Assembly: GCA_045604905.1 (NCBI GenBank)
Contig: JAZUOX010000061.1
Coordinates: forward strand, 1,987 to 65,986
Length of the DNA: 64,000 nt
From: Clostridia bacterium
GTDB taxonomy: Bacteria > Bacillota > Clostridia > UMGS1883
Reading direction: 5' to 3'
The notes under the pieces were generated by a model. The model made no database searches. It had not been told where the DNA came from and was given only the letters and a program-made list of their open reading frames with translations. Below, piece by piece: positions 7,301 through 47,325 of this stretch. Position numbers and translations under genes: made by a program. How positions within the stretch are numbered: the stretch's first letter is position 1; each line of letters opens with the position of its first letter.

Positions 7301-7916
7301 GACGACGGAATGCTTCTACTGCATCCATGTTAACGAGCTTTTTAAGCTGTTCGTCACTCCAGCACTCAACCTTCTGATATTCGTGAGAAGTTCTGAAACC
7401 GTCAAAGAAATGAAGGAAAGGAACTCTTGCCTCAAGTGTTGTGAGGTGTGCTACTGCACCAAGGTCCATAGCTTCCTGGGGATTTACAGAACAGAGCATT
7501 GCATAACCTGTCTGACGGCATGCGTATACGTCCTGATGATCACCGAAAATTGAAAGAGCGTGTGAAGCAAGTGCACGAGCAGATACATTAATAACTGAAG
7601 GCAAAAGCTCCCCTGCGATCTTGTACATGTTGGGAATCATAAGAAGAAGACCCTGAGAAGCTGTGTAAGTTGTTGTAAGAGCACCTGCTGTAAGAGAGCC
7701 GTGAACGGCACCTGCAGCACCACCCTCAGACTGCATTTCTGCAATCTTTACAGTTCTGCCGAAAATGTTCTTCTTTCCTTTTGCAGCCCATTCATCTGTA
7801 ACCTCAGCCATGTTTGAGGAAGGTGTAATGGGGTAGATAGCAGCAACGTCTGTAAACGCATAAGAGACATATGCGGCAGCGGTGTTACCATCCATGGTTT
7901 TTTTGTTTCTTGCCAT
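4395..7916 (-). CDS. nifJ: Pyruvate:ferredoxin (flavodoxin) oxidoreductase
   Basis: This 1173-aa single-chain PFOR has two ferredoxin-type CxxCxxCxxxCP motifs (CIQCNFCSYVCP, CTGCGSCANVCP) and a TPP-binding GDGWAYDIG motif. Confidence 0.97.
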   Translation of the reverse strand: MARNKKTMDGNTAAAYVSYAFTDVAAIYPITPSSNMAEVTDEWAAKGKKNIFGRTVKIAEMQSEGGAAGAVHGSLTAGALTTTYTASQGLLLMIPNMYKIAGELLPSVINVSARALASHALSIFGDHQDVYACRQTGYAMLCSVNPQEAMDLGAVAHLTTLEARVPFLHFFDGFRTSHEYQKVECWSDEQLKKLVNMDAVEAFRRRSLNPYHPAQRGTAQNPDVFFQAKEANNKFYDAVPELCQAYMDKVNAEIGTDYKLFNYYGAADAEHVIVAMGSACDTIQETVDYLNAKGAKVGLIKVRLYRPFSAKHLIDAIPASVKRISVLDRTKECGSIGEPLYLDVVAALRDSQFKDVEIFGGRYGLGSKDTTPAQIIAVYNNADKKRFTIGINDDVTFTSLQITENPDTTPAGTTSCKFWGLGADGTVGANKNSVKIIGDHTDMNVQAYFDYDSKKSGGLTVSHLRFGNAKITSTYLVNKADFVACHKASYIRKYDMVSDVKPGGVFLLNCPWTKAEEFEAHIPGQVKRYIAENDVQFYVIDGVQIGKEIGLGNRINTVLQSAFFKLANIIPAADAIQYMKDAATASYSKKGEAIVKMNHDAIDMGAQRVIKVDVPASWKDAKDEDLSVKFDGEGKLVDYINNILNPINSFAGMKLPVSAFVPYADGEVPLGSSAFEKRGIAIDVPEWKSENCIQCNFCSYVCPHACIRPVVLTEEEAKNAPEGIKYINMTGLNGLYFAMAVSVLDCTGCGSCANVCPGKKGEKALVMQPLETQEDKQAFFDYGIKIPEKAEVLEKFKPTTVKGSQFKQPLLEFSGACAGCGETPYAKLVTQLYGDKMYIANATGCSSIWGGSSPSTPYTTNAKGEGPAWANSLFEDNAEYGFGMFLAQNTLREDLVTKVEAVKETADDAAKAVIDKFLETKEDVNANKVAAEELMEVLAKMNTPEAAEILKDKEYLSKKSVWILGGDGWAYDIGYGGLDHVLASGEDVNILVFDTEVYSNTGGQSSKATPTGAIAKFAAAGKEVKKKDLAAIAMSYGYVYVAQVAQGADNNQCIKAFVEAGSYNGPSIVIAYAPCINHGIKGGMSIAQTEEKRAVQAGYWHLFRFDPRRTAEGLNPFQLDSKEPTESYEEFLMNEVRYNSLARSNPDRAKELFAKAAETAKAKYAELVERASK

Positions 7917-13911: not shown

Positions 13912-14433
13912 GTGAATTATATGTATTGTTGTTTTACCGGTCACCGACCGGAGAATCTTCCATGGAAATCAAACGAAAAAGATGCCCGGTGTCAAAAACT
14001 GAAAAGTGTTCTTTTTTCTTTAATTGAAGAAGCAATAAATGGCGGTTATACGGACTTTTACTGCGGAATGGCACGGGGTATTGATACTTATGCCGCAGAA
14101 GCAGTTATTGAGCTTTCGGCAAAATATCCTTCCGTAAAACTGCACGCGGTGCTTCCATGTCCTGACCAAAGTGAAAAATGGTCAGCAATCGACCGCGAAA
14201 GATATGAAAAACTTCTTGAAAAAACTTCTTCCCAAACACTTATAAGCCCTTTTTACACTAATACTTGTATGCTCACAAGAAACCGTTATATGGTAGATAA
14301 TTCAGAAAGACTTATAGCCGTGTGGAACGGAAACTTCCGCGGAGGCACCGCATACACGGCAAGATATGCAAAAGCTGAGAAAAAAGAGGTTTATCTGGTT
14401 CGCCCCTTAGATTCAACTTTCAAAATATTATAA
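13912..14433 (+). CDS. SLOG-family protein (DUF1273 / YpsA-like), paralog 2
   Basis: ...YCCFTGHRPENL...DFYCGMARGIDTYAAEAV...AVLPC... matches the DUF1273 pattern. The start may be the ATG at 13921 rather than the GTG at 13912. Confidence 0.8.
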   Translation: MNYMYCCFTGHRPENLPWKSNEKDARCQKLKSVLFSLIEEAINGGYTDFYCGMARGIDTYAAEAVIELSAKYPSVKLHAVLPCPDQSEKWSAIDRERYEKLLEKTSSQTLISPFYTNTCMLTRNRYMVDNSERLIAVWNGNFRGGTAYTARYAKAEKKEVYLVRPLDSTFKIL

Positions 14434-14436
14434 AAA

Positions 14437-14476
14437 GAGATGCAAAAAAAGCCCAGACCGCATTTTTCCTATCCCC
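14437..14476 (+). repeat. Ends-only mini copy of the structured repeat element (left end joined directly to right end)
   Basis: AGAGATGCAAAAAAAGCCCAGACCG matches the left end of copy A (GGGAATGTTAAAAATGCCCAGAACG) at 18 of 25 positions without gaps. CATTTTTCCTATCCCC matches the right end (CATTTTTTCCTATTCCC) at 15 of 16 positions with one T deleted. It starts 4 nt after the stop codon at 14431-14433. Confidence 0.5.
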
Positions 14477-14486
14477 AACAAAAGTG

Positions 14487-14518
14487 GGGTGTAAAGAAAT
14501 TCGATTTCTTTACACCCC
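14487..14518. terminator. Bidirectional intrinsic terminator (SLOG paralog 2 / hydF)
   Basis: GGGGTGTAAAGAAAT-tcg-ATTTCTTTACACCCC is flanked by AAAA and TTTT. Confidence 0.8.
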
Positions 14519-40911: not shown

Positions 40912-41541
40912 ATGAAAAACGTGACAATATTTGACCATCCGCTGATTCAACATAAAACAACTATATTAAGACAGACAACAACTTCAAACAAGGAATTTCG
41001 TGAGCTTGTTGAGGAAATCACAATGCTTATGTGTTTTGAAGCGCTTCGCGATCTTCCCCTTGAAGAAGTTGAAATTGAGACACCTCTTACAAAGACCACA
41101 CAAAAGATGATTAAGGGCAAAAAGCTTGCCGTTGTTCCGATTCTTCGTGCAGGTCTTGGTATGGTAAACGGTTTGCTTGACCTTGTTCCATCTGCAAAGG
41201 TTGGCCACATCGGTATGTACCGTGATGAGGAAACTATGATTCCTCATCCCTACTACTGCAAGCTTCCGGCAGATATTGACAAGCGTCTTATTGTTGTTGT
41301 TGACCCTATGCTTGCTACAGGCGGTTCGGCAATTGATGCTATTACCCAGATAAAGAAATCAGGCGGAACACAGATCAAGTTCCTGTGCTTGATTGCTGCT
41401 CCCGAAGGTATTGAGGCGCTTACAAAGGCACATCCCGATGTTGAAGTTTACTGCGCAAACGTGGATGAATGTCTTAATGAAAAGTGCTATATAGTACCAG
41501 GTCTTGGAGATGCCGGGGACAGAATTTTCGGCACAAAATAG
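40912..41541 (+). CDS. upp: Uracil phosphoribosyltransferase
   Basis: [20 protein letters not shown]...[11 protein letters not shown]... is the Upp pattern. The ATG at 40912 follows AAAGGAG. The ORF-track start at 40864 is too long. Confidence 0.95.
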
Positions 41542-41632
41542 TCGGGAATGTTAAAAATGCCCAGAACGTAAAAGGCATAAAAGTATAATAGATAAAAGCA
41601 TCACAAAAAATGAAATTTTTATGTCTGTTGAA

Positions 41633-41661
41633 GGGAATCGCACCAATGTGTGATTCCCTTT
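41633..41661 (+). repeat. 29-nt hairpin direct repeat, unit 1 (inside copy A)
   Basis: GGGAATCGCACCAATGTGTGATTCCCTTT is identical to 42004-42032. It is an 11-bp stem with one G-U pair on the plus strand. Confidence 0.9.
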
Positions 41662-41783
41662 CAGCGTGTCGATAAACCTATCGGCACGCTGGCAGACATC
41701 GAAAAAGGAAGGTAAATTTGTTCAACACGAACTCGTCGGCGTATGTGGATACGGTAGAGGGCGTGTTGGACGAAAATAAGCAG

Positions 41784-41818
41784 AAAACGGCTATAAACTG
41801 CGGGTTATAGCCGTTTTT
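41784..41818. terminator. Bidirectional terminator-like hairpin inside copy A
   Basis: AAAACGGCTATAA-actgcggg-TTATAGCCGTTTTT. Confidence 0.65.
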
Positions 41819-42003
41819 ATTAAATAAAGTTTTCTGCATAACACCTCATCCGAGTTGCTTCGCAACCCACCTTTTCCTCTCGGAGACGAGCCCCTTTTGT
41901 CAGCTTTGCAGACATTTCCCCCGACACGGGGGAATTTTCCTCAGAGGGGAAGGCGTTATTTTTATTCTCTGCTTATGGTTGACCGACTTTTTCGACAGTC
42001 TGA

Positions 42004-42032
42004 GGGAATCGCACCAATGTGTGATTCCCTTT
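42004..42032 (+). repeat. 29-nt hairpin direct repeat, unit 2 (inside copy A)
   Basis: Identical to 41633-41661 and followed by GTTTTT. Confidence 0.9.
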
Positions 42033-42173
42033 GTTTTTAAGCCTTTTATTACGAACAAACCTCACCTCTCGCTGTATCCACATACAGCTTCGGGTTTCCC
42101 CTTCGGGGTTCAGTTTGTCCGTTCTGAACATTTTTTCCTATTCCCGTTTATTAGCAAAAGAATTCTTTTTTTA

Positions 42174-42202
42174 TTGACCTTTCCTTCAATATAAGCTATA
42201 AT
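42174..42202 (+). promoter_or_regulatory. Candidate sigma-A promoter for the glycoside-hydrolase-like gene
   Basis: TTGACC (42174-42179), a 17-nt spacer, then TATAAT (42197-42202). It lies just downstream of the end of copy A. Confidence 0.55.
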
Positions 42203-42230
42203 TATAATAATATTGAAACGAGGTAATTTT

Positions 42231-44762
42231 ATGGATATCCGCGAGTTTAAAAATACATATAAAGAATTTTCTCCCTCCCTAATATGGGACTGGTGCGCAA
42301 AACCCACACCTGAGGAAATTGATTTTAAGCTTTCTTCATTTTCTTATATGGGGATTAAAAGTGTATACATTCGCCCGTCAAAGGGTCTTGCTACCCCCTA
42401 TCTTTCCGAAGATTATTTTGAGCTTATCCGCACTGCCGCAAGAAGAAGCGCACGCTACGGTATAGATATATGGGTTTTTGACGAAAATGCATCTGCAAGC
42501 GGAATCGGTGGCGGTGAAATTACCAGCGTTGACGATTACAGGCTCCGTGATTTTATAAAGGTAAACAAAACAGATATAGAAAAAACCGACGACATCTTAG
42601 CGGAAGATAATTCTTCTGCTCTGGTGCTTCGCGATATATCCGCTCTCCGAGCATCTACCCGTAACCCTATTGCCAACATTACCGACAGCTTTGTTTCAAA
42701 GTGCTTTTCCGAGGAAGTGTATGACCGCTACATCCGCGGATGCAAACGATTCATCGGATATGAAATTAAAGGCATTGTTTCAGGAATTAATTTGCCTGAT
42801 GACAGCACCATATATTCTCCTGAGGTATTCAGACGTCTTGACAACCCAGATAAAGCAAAATACGGCAAAAAGCTTCTTTCTAAAGATAAAGAAACATTGT
42901 CGTCATACTACGGCACTGTCAGTGACTGCATCAGAGAAAATTTCGTGTCACTTCTCCGTAAAAAATGCGGTGACAATAATCTTTCTCTTTCCGTATCTGT
43001 ATGCGGAAAAAGCGTCCTTTCACGTCAGAAGCAGTATATGGAAGCTGACAGTATTGTCCTCTATGCTGATGCGAAGAACCATGATATTATGGAATTCAAG
43101 CTGGCTGAATCAATAAGCTCACAGTTTAATAAACCCTTTACCGTATATCTTTCAACAGGAAAATTTGCGTCTGCAGCAATGCGGTTTAACAAAGCGGCAA
43201 AGCTTTGCGCTATGGGTGCACAGGCTGTTTCTTACAACAGTGTGGCATTCTCCCTTACAGACAGAAGAAAGTATGAGGATAATTCCCTTGTTCTCTCATC
43301 ATCCTCTGAAAAGGATATATCTGGCAGAATGTCAAGATTTTCTAAAGTTACATCTGAAACGAAATCCGCTGCAGATGTTCTTATTGTTTATTCACCCGAA
43401 AGCTATGATTTCTTCTCTGAATTATGCGAGCATTTTACTTCTCAGAACATTCAGTTTCACATAACAGAAAAGGATATATTCACATCGTTTTCAAAATGTG
43501 CTGACGGCAAAATCACAGTTGGTGAAAACGTCTACAACACTGTCGTTTATGAAAAAAATACAGTGGCATTGCCCGATGCATTTTCAGGTAAATCAATCGC
43601 ACTTGACACAACTCTTTCACCAAAAAACTGTAACATTACAGTGGACAGTACATCAACCTTGATAAGTGGTGATAAGGATTTTACCGTTAACCGCAGAAAA
43701 GATGGTGCAAACGAATATATATATATTACTACAACAAAGGGTGACACGGAAATCACCGTTTCGAATCTTACAAAAAAGCTTTTTGCTGCAGACAGTTCGA
43801 ATGGAGAAATTTACGAAATTCCCGAAACAGACAGTGTATGCAAATTTATTCTGAAAAACAATAAAACGGTACTTCTCATAGTTTCGGATGAATTTAATTA
43901 TGACATAATTCCTCCTTACACCGATGAGATTAAGCTCACCTATGGCGAAAAGGTATGTGATGTTCCCTTTGCCCTTTCGTCCGCAGGGGAAAATATTCTG
44001 CCCCTTAAGACGGTTAATGCCTGCTTTGGCAGAAAGGCGTACCGAGAAAATAACATTGATAATCTTCATAAGGAATTTTACGCTCTTCCCGACGGCGAAA
44101 CTGTAAAAGTAAAATATCCTTTTACCGCACATAAGGATAAAATCGGAACAGTTAAAGCATATTTTGAATATGCTGATAATTTTGATTTTGTTGAGCTTAA
44201 CGGAATAAGGCTTGAAAACCTTACACAAGCCGAAAACGACCCCAGATTTTTCGGTACTGATATTACCGAATATATTGCAGATGGCAAGAACACCCTTGCA
44301 GTAGAATATAAAAAGTGCAATAACTACACCCCCGATTTTAAGAGTTTCACTCCGTTGCATCTTTATTCTTTCAATACTACAAGCTTTGAGCCTGTATACC
44401 TTTCAGGAGATTTTGATGTTGACGGTGAAACAATTACACAGCTTGATGAATACACAAATGATGTAACTGAGTGCGGTATGCCCTATTACTACGGTGCTAT
44501 TACATACGTTGCTAAGCTTCCGGAAGACGGACTTTCCGGCACACTTCTTACCGTTCACGGCAATTTTGATATTTGCCGTATTAAAATCGGCAAGCGTGAG
44601 CTTACGTTCTATTCGGAAGTTCCCGAAACTGAACTTTTCAACCTTGACAGCGGAACTGTTGCGGAAATAACAGTGTTTAATACTCCCTACAACCTGCTTC
44701 GCACAACAGAGGAAAAGGCAAAACCCTTCGGTATTGAAAAAATAGAAATAATATCTCAATAA
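42231..44762 (+). CDS. Glycoside-hydrolase-like protein (N-terminal TIM-barrel-like region plus C-terminal beta-sandwich/jelly-roll regions); specificity unknown
   Basis: The N-terminal pattern ...WDW...TPEEID..L..F.YMGIKSVYIRPSKGL..PYLSEDYFELIR.AA..S..YGIDIWVFDE...SG..GG resembles uncharacterised GH-like families. The ATG at 42231 follows GAGGT. Confidence 0.6.
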   Translation: MDIREFKNTYKEFSPSLIWDWCAKPTPEEIDFKLSSFSYMGIKSVYIRPSKGLATPYLSEDYFELIRTAARRSARYGIDIWVFDENASASGIGGGEITSVDDYRLRDFIKVNKTDIEKTDDILAEDNSSALVLRDISALRASTRNPIANITDSFVSKCFSEEVYDRYIRGCKRFIGYEIKGIVSGINLPDDSTIYSPEVFRRLDNPDKAKYGKKLLSKDKETLSSYYGTVSDCIRENFVSLLRKKCGDNNLSLSVSVCGKSVLSRQKQYMEADSIVLYADAKNHDIMEFKLAESISSQFNKPFTVYLSTGKFASAAMRFNKAAKLCAMGAQAVSYNSVAFSLTDRRKYEDNSLVLSSSSEKDISGRMSRFSKVTSETKSAADVLIVYSPESYDFFSELCEHFTSQNIQFHITEKDIFTSFSKCADGKITVGENVYNTVVYEKNTVALPDAFSGKSIALDTTLSPKNCNITVDSTSTLISGDKDFTVNRRKDGANEYIYITTTKGDTEITVSNLTKKLFAADSSNGEIYEIPETDSVCKFILKNNKTVLLIVSDEFNYDIIPPYTDEIKLTYGEKVCDVPFALSSAGENILPLKTVNACFGRKAYRENNIDNLHKEFYALPDGETVKVKYPFTAHKDKIGTVKAYFEYADNFDFVELNGIRLENLTQAENDPRFFGTDITEYIADGKNTLAVEYKKCNNYTPDFKSFTPLHLYSFNTTSFEPVYLSGDFDVDGETITQLDEYTNDVTECGMPYYYGAITYVAKLPEDGLSGTLLTVHGNFDICRIKIGKRELTFYSEVPETELFNLDSGTVAEITVFNTPYNLLRTTEEKAKPFGIEKIEIISQ

Positions 44763-44801
44763 CACAAAAACTCTGTACGATTTCGTACAGAGTTTTTGTG
44801 T
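44762..44801. terminator. Bidirectional intrinsic terminator between the two convergent cassette genes
   Basis: ACACAAAAACTCTGTACGA-tt-TCGTACAGAGTTTTTGTGT is a perfect 19-bp stem. Confidence 0.85.
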
Positions 44802-45721
44802 TATTTATCTAATTCGTAAATTCTTATAGCATTCTCTCTTGCTATCTTATTAAATACGGTTTCTGTAATTCTTCCTGTATCACGCCATTCAACAAGAAGG
44901 TCACCGATTTCAACGGGATGCTGATTATTAACCATATCAGTACCGTACATAAGTCTGTCCTGGAACTCCGTCAGGAACTTCGCACCGAAATCAGGATCTC
45001 GTGTAAGTGCCATATATGGGGTACCGTCGGAAAGGTCACCGTAAAGATTCGGGTAATTGCGCATAAGATGCACCATTGCCCCCTCCTCCTCGATAGGACC
45101 TGTAGGAGGTTTTATAAGCATCCAATGATGGGTGTTGGAATATATTTTTCCGCGGCTGCCCGTAGTTTTAAGTCTGCCGATTTCTGCCCAGAATACAGGT
45201 CCATGTCCCATAATTTTAAGGTCGGGGAATTTCTGCAGAGTATGTTCAAGCTGCGGAAGACCGGGGTCGTCATAAAGACCGAAGTCGCCGTATTTCTGGT
45301 CAGAGCCGTCATAAGTTACGGGAAGACCTACCTTCTCCGCACATTTGAAAAGATTCTGCACAAGGGGATCCATAAGTTCAAGATTAGGCATAACCTCACC
45401 AAGACCTTTACACCCCTTGTCCTTATAATATGAAAGCACCCAGTCAAGCGGAGCATCTGCACGATTTGTGAGCATACGGGGGTCAACATTACAAAATGCA
45501 AAAAGTCTGTCAGGGTATTGTTCTACCATTTCAAGAACCTCTTCATTGGTCTGGGGAGAGTAAACCTCCGGACTAACAATGGGAAGCACTGCACCCTTTT
45601 CAATTCCAAGCTCGTCATAGCGTGCTATAAGTTCTTCCGCTGTACAGAAATTCCTGTCCACATTCCATGGTTTCGGAAAAGGTTTTACACGGTACGCGTG
45701 AGCATGTATATCAATAAACAT
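44801..45721 (-). CDS. Amidohydrolase-2 family (TIM-barrel metal-dependent hydrolase)
   Basis: MFIDIHAHAY... carries the HxH metal site. Other features are ...GCKGLGEV..., ...MGHGP... and ...YGTD... Confidence 0.8.
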   Translation of the reverse strand: MFIDIHAHAYRVKPFPKPWNVDRNFCTAEELIARYDELGIEKGAVLPIVSPEVYSPQTNEEVLEMVEQYPDRLFAFCNVDPRMLTNRADAPLDWVLSYYKDKGCKGLGEVMPNLELMDPLVQNLFKCAEKVGLPVTYDGSDQKYGDFGLYDDPGLPQLEHTLQKFPDLKIMGHGPVFWAEIGRLKTTGSRGKIYSNTHHWMLIKPPTGPIEEEGAMVHLMRNYPNLYGDLSDGTPYMALTRDPDFGAKFLTEFQDRLMYGTDMVNNQHPVEIGDLLVEWRDTGRITETVFNKIARENAIRIYELDK

Positions 45722-45836
45722 AAAATCAACCTCCTTGACCTTATGTTACTTGATTTCACATAAAAAAGCAATATATTATATTAACTATTTTGAATTTTCA
45801 TTATACTATATTGACCATTTTAGAGGCATAGTTACT

Positions 45837-46269
45837 GGGAATAGGAAAAAATGTTCTGAACGGACAAACGGAACTGCGGCATGCCGCAGGTTACCCGACG
45901 GTGTACAAAACCCGGGCCCCGTTCAGAGTGGTAGCGTAAGCGTGCTCTGAATGGGAGAGGAGCAACCAAGCGACTGCGTCGATATTTGCAAAGCAAATAC
46001 GACTAAAGCGTTAGTTGCGACGACCGAGAGGTGACGTTGGTTCGTAACAAAAGGCATAACAAAAAAGAAGCGTGCCGCTTCACCCATGTCGCGCACCTGC
46101 AAATGTCTAACATAGCTTCACGCGAATAAAATTACGCAAATTCCTATACGGCAAAAAAGAAAAGCCGTGCAACACGGCTTTTCAACTGAAAACGAAATAT
46201 TTATGCTTTTAGCACCAGCTGTACATTATTTTTTTGCCTTTTGTGTTCAGGGCATTTTTAACATTCCCC
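45837..46269 (-). repeat. Structured non-coding repeat element, copy B (433 nt), inverted relative to copy A
   Basis: The plus strand reads GGGAATAGGAAAAAATGTTCTGAACGGACAAAC...GTTCAGGGCATTTTTAACATTCCCC. It ends 3 nt before the stop codon of the minus-strand oxidoreductase gene. It shares blocks with copy A and has many hairpins. Confidence 0.8.
46164..46178. terminator. Terminator-like hairpin inside copy B
   Basis: GCCGTG-caa-CACGGC is flanked by AAAAAAGAAAA and TTTT. It occupies the same position in the element as the 29-nt hairpin of copy A, but has an unrelated stem sequence. Confidence 0.6.
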
Positions 46270-46272
46270 GAA

Positions 46273-47325
46273 TTACTCATCAAAGCCCATACCCCTAAGG
46301 TCTGCAACTACATTGAACTTTTCTGCATCATACATCTTCCAGATAACCTGAAGGCTCTTCATTGCAGTTCTGCCGTCAGTATCGGGTGTCTTATCATTTA
46401 AGATACAGTCAACAAAGTGTCTGATTTCAAACTGTGTCATTTTACCAACTGCAGTGTCATCCTTCCAGATTACTTTGTAACCTGTTCCTTCTTCTGCCCC
46501 GACATTATGTGCGTGATTCTGATTGTAGAGCTGAATTTCACCGTTGGGACGGTCATAACGAAGAAGACCCTTTTCACACATAATCTGGCAATCCCAACCC
46601 ATACGTGTACCGACTGCATTCCAGGTTGCACCGTGGTAACCGAGAGCACCGCTTTCGAACTTGAAGCTTGCAACACTTGTGCTTTCACGAAGAAGGAGGT
46701 TATCGCCAACCTTTGAGCCGAAGTGTGTACCTGCAACGGGTTTACCCAGGAACCAGAGGAGAACATCTACATAGTGGCAACCGTGGCTGAAGAACTGACC
46801 GCCACCAAGTCTTGCTGTGTTACCCCAGCCTGTTTCATCAAGACCTTTTGTAAGCTGTTCTGTCCAGATAGACATCTGTATAACCTTACCGTATTCACCG
46901 CTGTCAACCAATTCCTTAAGTTTAACCATACCGGGCCAGTGACGAACGGGATATGCACACATAAGCTTAACATTTTCTTCTTCACATATTTCGATAAGAC
47001 GAAGGCACTCTTCCTCTGTATTACAAAGAGGCTTTTCCATGAGAACGTGCTTACCGTTTCTTGCAAAGAACACACCACATTCATAGTGCAAATCGTGAGG
47101 AAGTGCAACTAAAACTGCATCAACATAATTAGTCATTGTCTTCCAGTCTGTTGTTATGTAGGGATTTTCAATACCCCCTTCAAGTGCAGCCGCAAGGTTC
47201 TCTGCATTTTCACGGATAATATCGCAAAATGCAGTAACCTCTACATTTTCAACGTGCTGAATGCCTGCAATATGGCTTGCCATCATTTTACCGCAACCGA
47301 TTATACCAAATCTTATTTTTTTCAT
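46273..47325 (-). CDS. Gfo/Idh/MocA-family oxidoreductase
   Basis: The N-terminal Rossmann motif reads FGIIGCGKMMASH. The family motif ...EKP... is present. The protein is 350 aa. Confidence 0.88.
   Translation of the reverse strand: MKKIRFGIIGCGKMMASHIAGIQHVENVEVTAFCDIIRENAENLAAALEGGIENPYITTDWKTMTNYVDAVLVALPHDLHYECGVFFARNGKHVLMEKPLCNTEEECLRLIEICEEENVKLMCAYPVRHWPGMVKLKELVDSGEYGKVIQMSIWTEQLTKGLDETGWGNTARLGGGQFFSHGCHYVDVLLWFLGKPVAGTHFGSKVGDNLLLRESTSVASFKFESGALGYHGATWNAVGTRMGWDCQIMCEKGLLRYDRPNGEIQLYNQNHAHNVGAEEGTGYKVIWKDDTAVGKMTQFEIRHFVDCILNDKTPDTDGRTAMKSLQVIWKMYDAEKFNVVADLRGMGFDE

Follow-up and report, generated by a model that had tools for sequence, protein, structure and literature searches.

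Why should two non-coding elements of several hundred nucleotides, related in sequence and inverted with respect to one another, each begin immediately behind the stop codon of a gene and enclose two further genes between them? The question is raised by a 64,000-nt stretch of a Clostridia bacterium genome (contig JAZUOX010000061.1, positions 1,987 to 65,986; hereafter the window), in which copy A (41544-42145, forward strand) follows upp and copy B (45837-46269, reverse strand) follows a Gfo/Idh/MocA gene (gfo), with a glycoside hydrolase (GH)-like gene and an amidohydrolase gene in between. The answer from the sequence is that A, B and a 41-nt mini copy at 14436-14476 are members of an old, multi-copy family of non-coding repeats with a unit of ~230 nt. 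A and B stand in inverted orientation because the outer genes are convergent and each copy belongs to the gene upstream of it.

The coordinates and shared ends of A and B given by the initial annotation hold exactly. Neither the 24-mer of the outer end nor the 33-mer of the inner end is found anywhere in the window but at A and B, whilst shuffles would be expected to yield none. A repeat finder recovers three blocks common to the two copies (42 nt at 88%, 43 nt at 86% and 38 nt at 95% identity). As had been noticed, the outer end of each copy lies just past the stop codon of the gene that reads into it, with a gap of 2 nt for A (upp TAG at 41539-41541, unit from 41544) and 3 nt for B (gfo TAA at 46275-46273, unit from 46269); the hairpins and the motif of GTTGAA plus hairpin described in both copies are also there, and are a feature of the whole family. 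What had been missed is that the termini of each copy are imperfect inverted repeats of one another, and that the one base which varies does so together with its partner (A has CAGAAC/GTTCTG, B has CTGAAC/GTTCAG); compensatory change is likewise seen in another long-range pairing, AAAAGGC/GCCTTTT. The parts of the three copies are listed below, where P1, P2 and P3 denote the helices of the predicted fold, T1 an internal hairpin, hp1 and hp2 the hairpins of the 3' domain, and L-numbers the loci collected elsewhere.

41544-42145, forward: copy A, a family unit interrupted by a nested insert (nhmmer model positions 2-117 at 41544-41660 and 88-235 at 42002-42145; covariance model R1, 117.9 bits)
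41544-41567, forward: head of A, comprising the 5' strand of P1 (GGGAATGTTAAAAATG) and the junction CCCAGAAC; pairs with the tail at 42123-42145, and P1 covaries family-wide
41568-41577, forward: 5' strand of P2 in A, GTAAAAGGCA, with its partner GCCTTTTAT at 42041-42049
41631-41660, forward: internal hairpin T1 of A, AAGGGAATCGCAC caat GTGTGATTCCCTT, with a second copy at 42003-42030
41662-42002, forward: 341-nt insert nested in A at T1, with duplicated T1 on both sides; not in the orthologous unit of L122
42003-42030, forward: second T1 copy, then TGTTTTT; terminator-like site 42002-42031; direct repeat of 45 nt at 84%
42050-42145, forward: conserved 3' domain of A, the best-conserved part of the family; in order, P3 (ACGAACAAAC / GTTTGTCCGT), TCACCTCTCG, hp1 (42071-42088), CTTCGGG, hp2 (42097-42108), TTCTGAAC and the tail CATTTTTTCCTATTCCC (42129-42145)
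45837-46269, reverse: copy B, a unit of the expanded-hp1 sub-family with a nested 78-nt repeat (R1, 138.3 bits over model positions 1-236; nhmmer in pieces)
46159-46183, reverse: internal hairpin T1 of B, GAAAAGCCGTG ttg CACGGCTTTTC, then TTTTTT; terminator-like site
46076-46153, reverse: nested 78-nt repeat of another family, with its own hairpin and T-run at the end (46081-46061); 90-97% identical copies elsewhere
45908-46023, reverse: enlarged hp1 arm of B (116 nt), which matches the corresponding expansions in the L105 and L049 units at ~91% identity
14436-14476, forward: mini copy of 41 nt, P1 only, an internal-deletion derivative (R1, 35.7 bits, E = 7e-8)
14486-14518, no strand assigned: perfect terminator hairpin GGGGTGTAAAGAAAT tcg ATTTCTTTACACCCC after the mini copy, its 5' arm resembling the family head

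The description of a large element does not hold for the unit itself: the size of both copies is secondary, copy A running from model position 2 to 117, through the insert, and on from 88 to 235, and copy B being a unit enlarged by its hp1 arm and by the nested repeat. Within A's insert lie an inverted, degenerate fragment of a unit's 3' half (~41727-41780), supported as unit-derived by an inverted repeat (41730-41752 / 42074-42096), and a terminator-like hairpin (41784-41817). The mini copy begins 2 nt past the stop codon of a YpsA/SLOG-family gene (13912-14433; Pfam assignment), and its arrangement, a unit followed by a head-like hairpin, is found behind ~20 units elsewhere.

How widely does the family occur? 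We collected ~170 copies in 120 loci from gut and rumen metagenome-assembled genomes (MAGs) of Clostridia and Oscillospiraceae and from metagenomes. A first scan, with one genome per species and the exact inner-end 23-mer as query, returned 58 loci in ~20 MAGs, all labelled Clostridia or Oscillospiraceae and drawn from human, pig, sheep and roe-deer gut, with up to nine loci from one MAG; outer-to-inner end distances in the collected loci put the typical unit at 217-253 nt. A profile built from 43 copies then recovered 58 full-length copies, covariance model R1 gave 89 matches in 464 kb, and another conserved block, used to scan metagenomes, contributed a further 61 loci and 64 covariance-model matches, divergent sub-families included. 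Contigs often end at units. Units of this kind interrupt metagenome assemblies and take up "intergenic" space across many uncultured Oscillospiraceae, where a covariance model would improve annotation.

The family is found neither in Rfam 15, PLSDB and INPHARED nor in the literature searched. With Rfam 15 at E<=10, positions 41400-46400 and the canonical units of L122 and L008 returned noise only, so that the suggestion of a novel element, distinct from described families including ROOL, GOLLD, OLE, HEARO and raiA, is borne out by the lack of any covariance-model match; over all 64 kb no model reached its gathering score, and no tRNA, riboswitch or leader was found. Blastn of a canonical unit against PLSDB (72,556 plasmids) and INPHARED (50,697 phage records) gave no match. 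In the literature searched, the conserved strings of the unit occur in no paper, and queries combining MITE (miniature inverted-repeat transposable element), Oscillospiraceae and stop codon turned up no description of such a repeat. Exact-protein look-ups for upp and Gfo had nothing on record, and relatives were reached by homologue searches. When the open reading frames (ORFs) of the first 58 loci were clustered, no recurrent mobile-element protein, transposase or integrase emerged; the largest recurrent clusters were syntenic housekeeping genes and AraC-type regulators. A scan of viral contigs with the 3' block yielded nothing, and the same scan with the middle block yielded one phage contig (L059, an IMG/VR contig with capsid, P22-like portal and large terminase genes), which holds two units at 2637-2859 and 7332-7545. 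It is possible that this contig represents a route of horizontal spread.

The unit is predicted to fold as a three-way junction of P1, P2 and P3, and the covariation behind this prediction, taken from a structure-blind MAFFT alignment of 43 units with RNAalifold and pair counts, is very strong. P1 is the long closing helix of the termini (head GGGAUG-UU-AAAAAUG-CC-CAGA, tail UCUG-AA-CAUUUUU-UCC-UAUCCC). P2 is a 10-bp helix around an AU-rich spacer and hairpin T1, the latter preceded by GKTGRAAA; all ten of its pairs have changes on both sides, with almost no one-sided intermediates, and 96% of its cells are paired. P3, in which ACGAACAAAC pairs with GUUUGUCCGU, encloses UUCACCUCUCG, hp1, CUUCGGGUAACC and hp2, and so forms the sequence-conserved 3' domain. 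Overall, 97.7% of cells are paired, a figure that falls to 87.1% once columns are shuffled and to 31-47% if partners are displaced by 1-3 columns; both sides have changed in 224 cells, as against 76.5 +/- 7 in shuffles; and the covariation score is 0.306 as against 0.119, with none of 500 shuffles reaching the observed value. In divergent sub-families the outer part of P1 has been swapped wholesale and yet is paired (GGGAT/ATCCC; GGGGCTGTAGC.../...GCCCC; CCGCGCGG/CCTCGCGCGG), and the internal loop GCCC/GAAC has become the fully paired GCGC/GCGC.

Several other signals were considered within the unit and set aside. Tetraloops of the UUCG or GNRA type were not used as an RNA signature, the loops being ambiguous (CCC-TTC-GGG). 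Small ORFs were rejected by inspection, as the AUG of the head is not conserved (ATG, ACG or AAG), and hp1 and hp2 vary in length by steps other than threes, which disrupts the frame read antisense across the 3' domain. Nor is the head likely to serve as a TGnTAAAAT-like promoter: sub-families do not keep this motif, and transcripts begun at that point would be without the 5' strand of P1.

Equally characteristic of the family is where it sits. Amongst 86 non-identical units whose flanks reach 200 nt or more on either side, counting ORFs of at least 60 codons, the stop codon of a co-directional ORF lies -2 to +12 nt before the head in 61 (mode 2-5 nt), and a convergent ORF ends equally near the tail in 4. 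The upstream genes are unrelated housekeeping genes (pgk, tpiA, carB, nrdD, polA, infB, mnmE, argJ, an M24 peptidase gene, upp), and units, oriented like the gene they follow, fill the slot that runs from its stop codon to a terminator or to the ribosome-binding site of the gene after it. This orientation follows the upstream gene and not the direction of replication, since A and B lie in opposite orientations within 4 kb, each matching its own gene. Both window copies contain a T1 hairpin with a T-run; across 99 units the terminator features of T1 are strong in 26, moderate in 47, and weak or without a T-run in the rest.

Is such a family a recent invader or a long-standing resident? The slot between pgk and tpiA is filled in six species and empty in two, and one species has a different sub-type there; the slot 3' of tpiA is filled in one species and empty in three. 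Further copies and empty sites, for which the initial annotation had proposed a search in related Clostridia, were thus both found. These filled and empty sites, together with nesting and tandem partial copies, point to past mobility of the family. Neither a target-site duplication nor a fixed target string was found in the flanks of at least 43 copies and in four filled/empty site comparisons. Orthologous units are as well conserved as the flanking coding DNA or better (unit vs flanks, % identity: 99.1 vs 91/90; 100 vs 95; 96 vs 89/84; 94.3 vs 87/89; 99.1 vs 93/91), and paralogous units from separate loci of a single MAG do not exceed 88% identity; for both reasons we take the family to be an old one whose copies appear to be maintained by selection, and not a recently bursting MITE. 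The view of A and B as old, strongly diverged copies of a selected and conserved element is in this respect well supported.

Deletion derivatives that keep both ends are known from three places: 14436-14476 in the window, L026 and L023. Moreover, in 20 of 102 units the tail is followed within 1-11 nt by the unit's own head as a direct repeat, with 14 or more of 18 positions matching. The mean match is 15.7/18 to a unit's own head and 12.1 to the heads of other units, with a maximum of 12 in the coding-sequence control. The repeat spans 15-35 nt in ~20% of units, some running to 35-75 nt as partial second units, and it continues as a perfect complement (giving a terminator hairpin), as a partial second unit, or as another repeat family with the same 17-nt head. 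In one pair of loci with flanks 95-96% identical (L006 and L028), the hairpin is present in both and the unit in L006 only, where the unit's head and tail carry that hairpin's private variant.

With the family defined, the history of the upp-gfo locus can be read from its relatives, for which three further features are needed.

44797-46271, reverse: lineage-specific 1,475-nt segment with copy B, a promoter and the amidohydrolase gene (44801-45721), placed between the stop codon of gfo and the common bidirectional terminator; missing in L122-L124
44758-44805, no strand assigned: bidirectional terminator that separates the GH-like gene from the amidohydrolase gene, with perfect arms of 23 bp; kept in the relative
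42174-42202, forward: promoter-like site of the GH-like gene, TTGACC-17-TATAAT, 29 nt past copy A and outside the unit; 11/12 matches; kept in L122

In the relatives L122-L124 (Gfo protein 84% identical) the order is an AraC gene, gfo reading rightwards, and then, all reading leftwards, the GH-like gene, a unit, upp and a permease gene. A standard 249-nt unit (152 bits) follows upp in L122/L124 and is succeeded by the same TTGACC-17-TATAAT promoter and the GH-like gene; copy A is therefore orthologous to that unit, its 341-nt insert having been gained since. At the other end, the gfo stop codon is followed 22 nt on by the common bidirectional hairpin and the GH-like stop codon, the 44797-46271 segment being missing, and in more distant relatives (Gfo 73% identical) a plain terminator follows gfo. 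A contig 91.5% identical to the window (L121) lacks the whole 3' half of B (~238 nt): its positions 1-30 jump from the hairpin of the 78-nt repeat to the amidohydrolase promoter (window 46081-45800), and the contig ends there. The amidohydrolase (PF04909) has one 99%-identical relative, and its other homologues are at most 68% identical. The gene was probably acquired horizontally, since these homologues are distant and in unrelated phyla and the gene is missing in the closest syntenic relatives. Copy A and the GH-like gene are ancestral, and B and the amidohydrolase gene are later arrivals in a stop-to-terminator slot of the kind that single units use elsewhere.

This history bears directly on the idea of the initial annotation that the inverted pair brackets a mobile or invertible two-gene cassette, A and B being the ends of a composite, MITE-flanked module that moves or inverts the GH-like and amidohydrolase genes together. 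The copies are indeed inverted around two genes, and the segment with B and the amidohydrolase gene is indeed lineage-specific; however, in the relative, which has neither B nor the amidohydrolase gene, upp, unit, promoter and GH-like gene are arranged and oriented as in the window, so that A and the GH-like gene are the ancestral part and the variable segment holds one unit only. As B and the amidohydrolase gene form a single lineage-specific insertion, the bracketing of two genes is coincidental. Each copy, moreover, stands behind the stop codon of its own upstream gene, as is the rule in the family, and no recombinase is present at the locus. We regard a composite module as extremely improbable.

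Beyond their inner ends, the similarity of the two copies had been traced on into the -10 region. The likeness is real, but it does not belong to the repeat unit: the promoters of both inner genes (42190-42204, forward; 45794-45808, reverse) have the common motif CAATATA(A)G(C)TATAAT, which is also kept in L122 and L121. It could be a common operator, or merely an AT-rich -10 region.

Amongst known systems we would file the family as a structured intergenic repeat, a member of no named family. In population behaviour and 3'-untranslated-region (3'-UTR) habitat it is like REP (repetitive extragenic palindrome)/BIME, bcr1, SPRITE/BOX/RUP and Correia/ERIC repeats, from which it differs in size, in its asymmetric three-way junction with a conserved domain, in the lack of a target duplication and in strict stop-codon anchoring. 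REP/BIME and REPINs of Enterobacteria and Pseudomonas are likewise multi-copy palindromic repeats in 3' UTRs or between the genes of operons, in tandem or nested clusters, with conservation at orthologous sites and complementarity kept; a passage of one source places REPs often within 15 nt of the stop codon, affecting the terminating ribosome (PMC12306157). The position near the stop, the clusters and the conservation at orthologous sites all recur in the present family. REPs are, however, simple hairpins of 20-40 nt that bear a tag, GTAG or CGTC, and are associated with RAYT genes (PMC3733652), whereas our unit is ~230 nt, asymmetric and strictly oriented, with no GTAG tag or head; GTAG-type palindromes occur only as separate small repeats nested in L023 and L053, and no RAYT gene was seen in the collected loci. 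The bcr/bcr1 repeats of the Bacillus cereus group, interspersed repeats of a Firmicute (155-310 bp), are transcribed, have a cruciform-like fold with compensatory changes and vary in distribution between strains (PMC3184786). bcr1 is flanked by 5-bp direct repeats and behaves as a recent mobile element, unlike the family here, which has no duplication, old paralogues, purifying selection on orthologues and a stop-codon anchor. SPRITE of Streptococcus pneumoniae resembles a Rho-independent terminator, and SPRITE/BOX/RUP, Correia/nemis and ERIC are all small non-coding repeats for which RNA structures are predicted; they are transcribed along with adjacent genes, and they change how transcripts end or how stable the mRNA is (PMC3184786). 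Our family has no sequence similarity to SPRITE/BOX/RUP, to Correia/nemis (of Neisseria) or to ERIC, which are without a multi-helix junction with wholesale covariation, and for none of which is a start within a few nucleotides of a stop codon, as in ~70% of copies here, reported.

Measured against a classical MITE, the family has terminal inverted repeats (head GGGATGTTAAAAATG..CAGAAC, tail GTTCTGAACATTTTTTCCTATCCC; ~16-25 nt, imperfect, covarying), multiple copies without coding capacity and presence/absence polymorphism. It has no target-site duplication of fixed length. No autonomous insertion sequence with the same ends came to light (the first 58 loci have no transposase cluster, PLSDB and INPHARED gave no match, and the longest unit is 602 nt), nor did recent near-identical copies, paralogues within a MAG being at most 88% identical. 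Measured against a structured cis-acting RNA, it has the covariation that backs a consensus fold and lacks a tolerance of G.U far above that of A.C. A derivation from IS200/IS605 as a PATE was rejected, there being no hairpin in the first 35 nt and left flanks that are alike only in the stop codon and A-richness, with no fixed target of 4-5 nt.

Integron attC sites, and the attP(+) site of CTX phage, are imperfect palindromes in which pairing and not sequence is conserved and the bulges of the stem are kept, and attC begins at or just after the preceding stop codon. attC sites are 57-141 nt long, have RYYYAAC/GTTRRRY cores and stand in promoterless cassette arrays beside intI; they are not known from Clostridia. 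The family differs in its cores (CAGAAC / GTTCTGA), in its length of ~230 nt and in its position behind core housekeeping genes in conserved operons such as pgk, tpiA, infB and polA, with no integrase in the first 58 loci, and an identity as attC was rejected on these grounds. The tail-head junction TTCCTAT-N8-15-ATGT(T)AAA may resemble the dif site of Firmicutes, which we take as a lead only; no dif-like site was seen in the loci.

What, then, might the unit do where it sits? Each of the three explanations offered at the outset was right in part, in that the structure covaries, in that empty sites, nesting and deletion derivatives are MITE-like, and in that both window copies have a terminator-like hairpin with a T-run. 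The reading we prefer, tentatively, is of a selected REP/MITE-like module that acts in cis on the 3' end of the upstream gene. We infer that RNA polymerase would read the unit as the 3' UTR or intercistronic spacer of that gene, and that T1 would end or pause transcription, in both directions where genes converge. The P1/P2/P3 fold might hold the remainder together as a compact block, so that neighbouring genes are insulated and the 3' end is shielded, and translation of the upstream gene could open this fold, because the 5' strand of P1 is within reach of the terminating ribosome. Copies would have spread by rare copy-and-insert or recombination events aimed at the stop-to-terminator slot and then been kept by selection, an outcome we would liken to domesticated REP/BIME, SPRITE or bcr1-type repeats. 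What makes us lean, with the same reserve, towards a role in RNA is the co-orientation and tight spacing to the upstream ORF, the purifying selection, the T1 hairpins and the precedent of REPs, which, according to a passage that cites Liang 2015, stall terminating ribosomes when they lie within 15 nt of the stop codon (PMC12306157); bcr1 and SPRITE are also transcribed, structured repeats (PMC3184786).

Several observations weigh against this preference. Non-canonical helix cells number ~58 for G.U and 66 for A.C (one invariant G.U and a 3-bp mini-helix excluded), so there is no excess of G.U; and the antisense strand of the canonical unit folds as well as the sense strand (z-scores of -10.0 and -9.3; copy A, full of extra hairpins, has -16.8). 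Because of both, the unit has no strand-specific RNA signature. The conserved unpaired strings have no identified partner; the conserved 3' domain may be little transcribed, since in many units it lies downstream of a terminator-like hairpin; and the two units of the phage contig L059 are antisense to structural genes, with no adjoining co-directional stop codon. Pairing of the Watson-Crick type only would fit an element that works in both directions of transcription, plausible at many convergent gene pairs; it would equally fit a fold in single-stranded DNA.

The latter possibility is at the core of the main rival, which we consider somewhat unlikely: that the units are selfish, non-autonomous mobile DNA of a MITE/REPIN-like kind, with any effect on the host incidental. 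In its details, which we rate no higher, the folded single strand (P1 termini plus 3' domain) would be the substrate of an unlinked HUH/Y1 transposase, an Xer-type or another recombinase, and would insert beside terminator hairpins without target duplication. The imperfect terminal inverted repeats, the deletion derivatives with both ends, the filled and empty orthologous sites, and the nesting of an insert into another unit's T1 hairpin, with that hairpin duplicated, all speak for it. So do the direct repeats of a unit's own head, often completed to a hairpin, with the hairpin of L006/L028 resident in both loci and the unit in only one; the complementarity that is Watson-Crick only and without strand bias; the contigs that often break at units; and the two copies in a phage contig. 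It sits badly with the absence of near-identical paralogues within a genome, with orthologues conserved as well as or better than coding DNA, with the lack of a target-site duplication, a conserved target string or (in the first 58 loci clustered) a recurrent transposase or integrase, with an orientation that follows the upstream gene and not replication, and with the absence of any copy from the plasmid and phage records searched. The head repeats could also be read quite differently, as parts of a translation-sensing 3' attenuator in which the ribosome covers the head (1), the freed tail (2) pairs with the downstream head repeat (3), and the terminator 3:4 is blocked, so that read-through into downstream DNA would depend on translation of the upstream gene. 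In most units the head does lie 0-6 nt past the stop codon; the own-head copy 1-11 nt on, in ~20% of units, is often the 5' arm of a perfect hairpin with a T-run; and head, tail and hairpin arm change together in sub-families (GGGGCTGTAGCAAAATGC; the AAAATCG variant). Both the mechanism and the dependence on translation nevertheless strike us as improbable: ~80% of units, A and B included, have no downstream head repeat, many of the units in question face a convergent gene and have nothing downstream to regulate, and some repeats run for 35-75 nt as partial second units, suggesting duplication rather than design. The perfect hairpin is also far more stable than the pairing of tail and repeat, and there is no tolerance of G.U.

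A free-standing gene for a trans-acting structured RNA, a new class of large non-coding RNA like OLE, ROOL, GOLLD or raiA, would account for the strong covariation, the conserved unpaired strings and the junction architecture. It is very improbable in our estimate, given dozens of diverged copies per genome at unrelated genes, an internal terminator-like hairpin, no match in Rfam and no room for a promoter, the head starting 0-6 nt past a stop codon. Rather less far-fetched, if still unlikely, is that the family represents a new stop-codon-anchored nucleic-acid device: either a ribosome-opened RNA three-way junction that reports translation through the fate of the 3' end (termination, read-through or decay), or a DNA element that folds as a single strand and targets terminator hairpins while lacking its own transposase. 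Were the RNA junction to prove true, dozens of housekeeping genes would be followed by what leader-peptide attenuation is at the 5' end, transposed to the 3' end. If the family functions as RNA, gut Clostridia would have a widespread but so far overlooked means of shaping how core mRNAs end, such as those of glycolysis genes, IF-2, Pol I and NrdD. Transcription and translation are believed to run uncoupled in this group, and the biology of its 3' UTRs has hardly been explored. If, instead, the family acts at the level of DNA, it would be a repeat that recognises the stop-to-terminator slot by a rule not yet described, and the amidohydrolase gene beside copy B would be an example of such repeats seeding the insertion of new genes.

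A few observations concern the neighbours of the units. The GH-like protein of 843 aa (42231-44762, forward) has no Pfam match at E<=1e-5, and its gene is 72% identical at the nucleotide level in relatives. The 78-nt repeat nested in B belongs to a family also present in L034 (2984-3059 and 3076-3153), L028 (1763-1840), L022 (6672-6748) and L122 (3025-3215); it is 90-97% identical between genomes, is often in tandem, and ends in its own hairpin and T-run. Another repeat family contains many (T/G)CGAAAT/GCGAAGT heptamers, an inverted copy following ~90 nt on (L010 ~760-955, L021 ~1670-1760, L046 ~880-1070, L043, L048, L017 3197-3325). It begins with the 17-nt head of the main family, GGGATGTTAAAAATGC, and the two families thus have this head in common. 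Two small repeats, finally, lie in or beside units (L023 1782-1917; L053 4559-4777; L028 ~7850; L042 ~3520): the first is a GTAG-tagged, REP-like palindrome, TGTAGGG..GGCTTGC.., and the second carries the motif GGGCTTTCGCTCGCGCGGCACTC(A/G)CCGTGCC.

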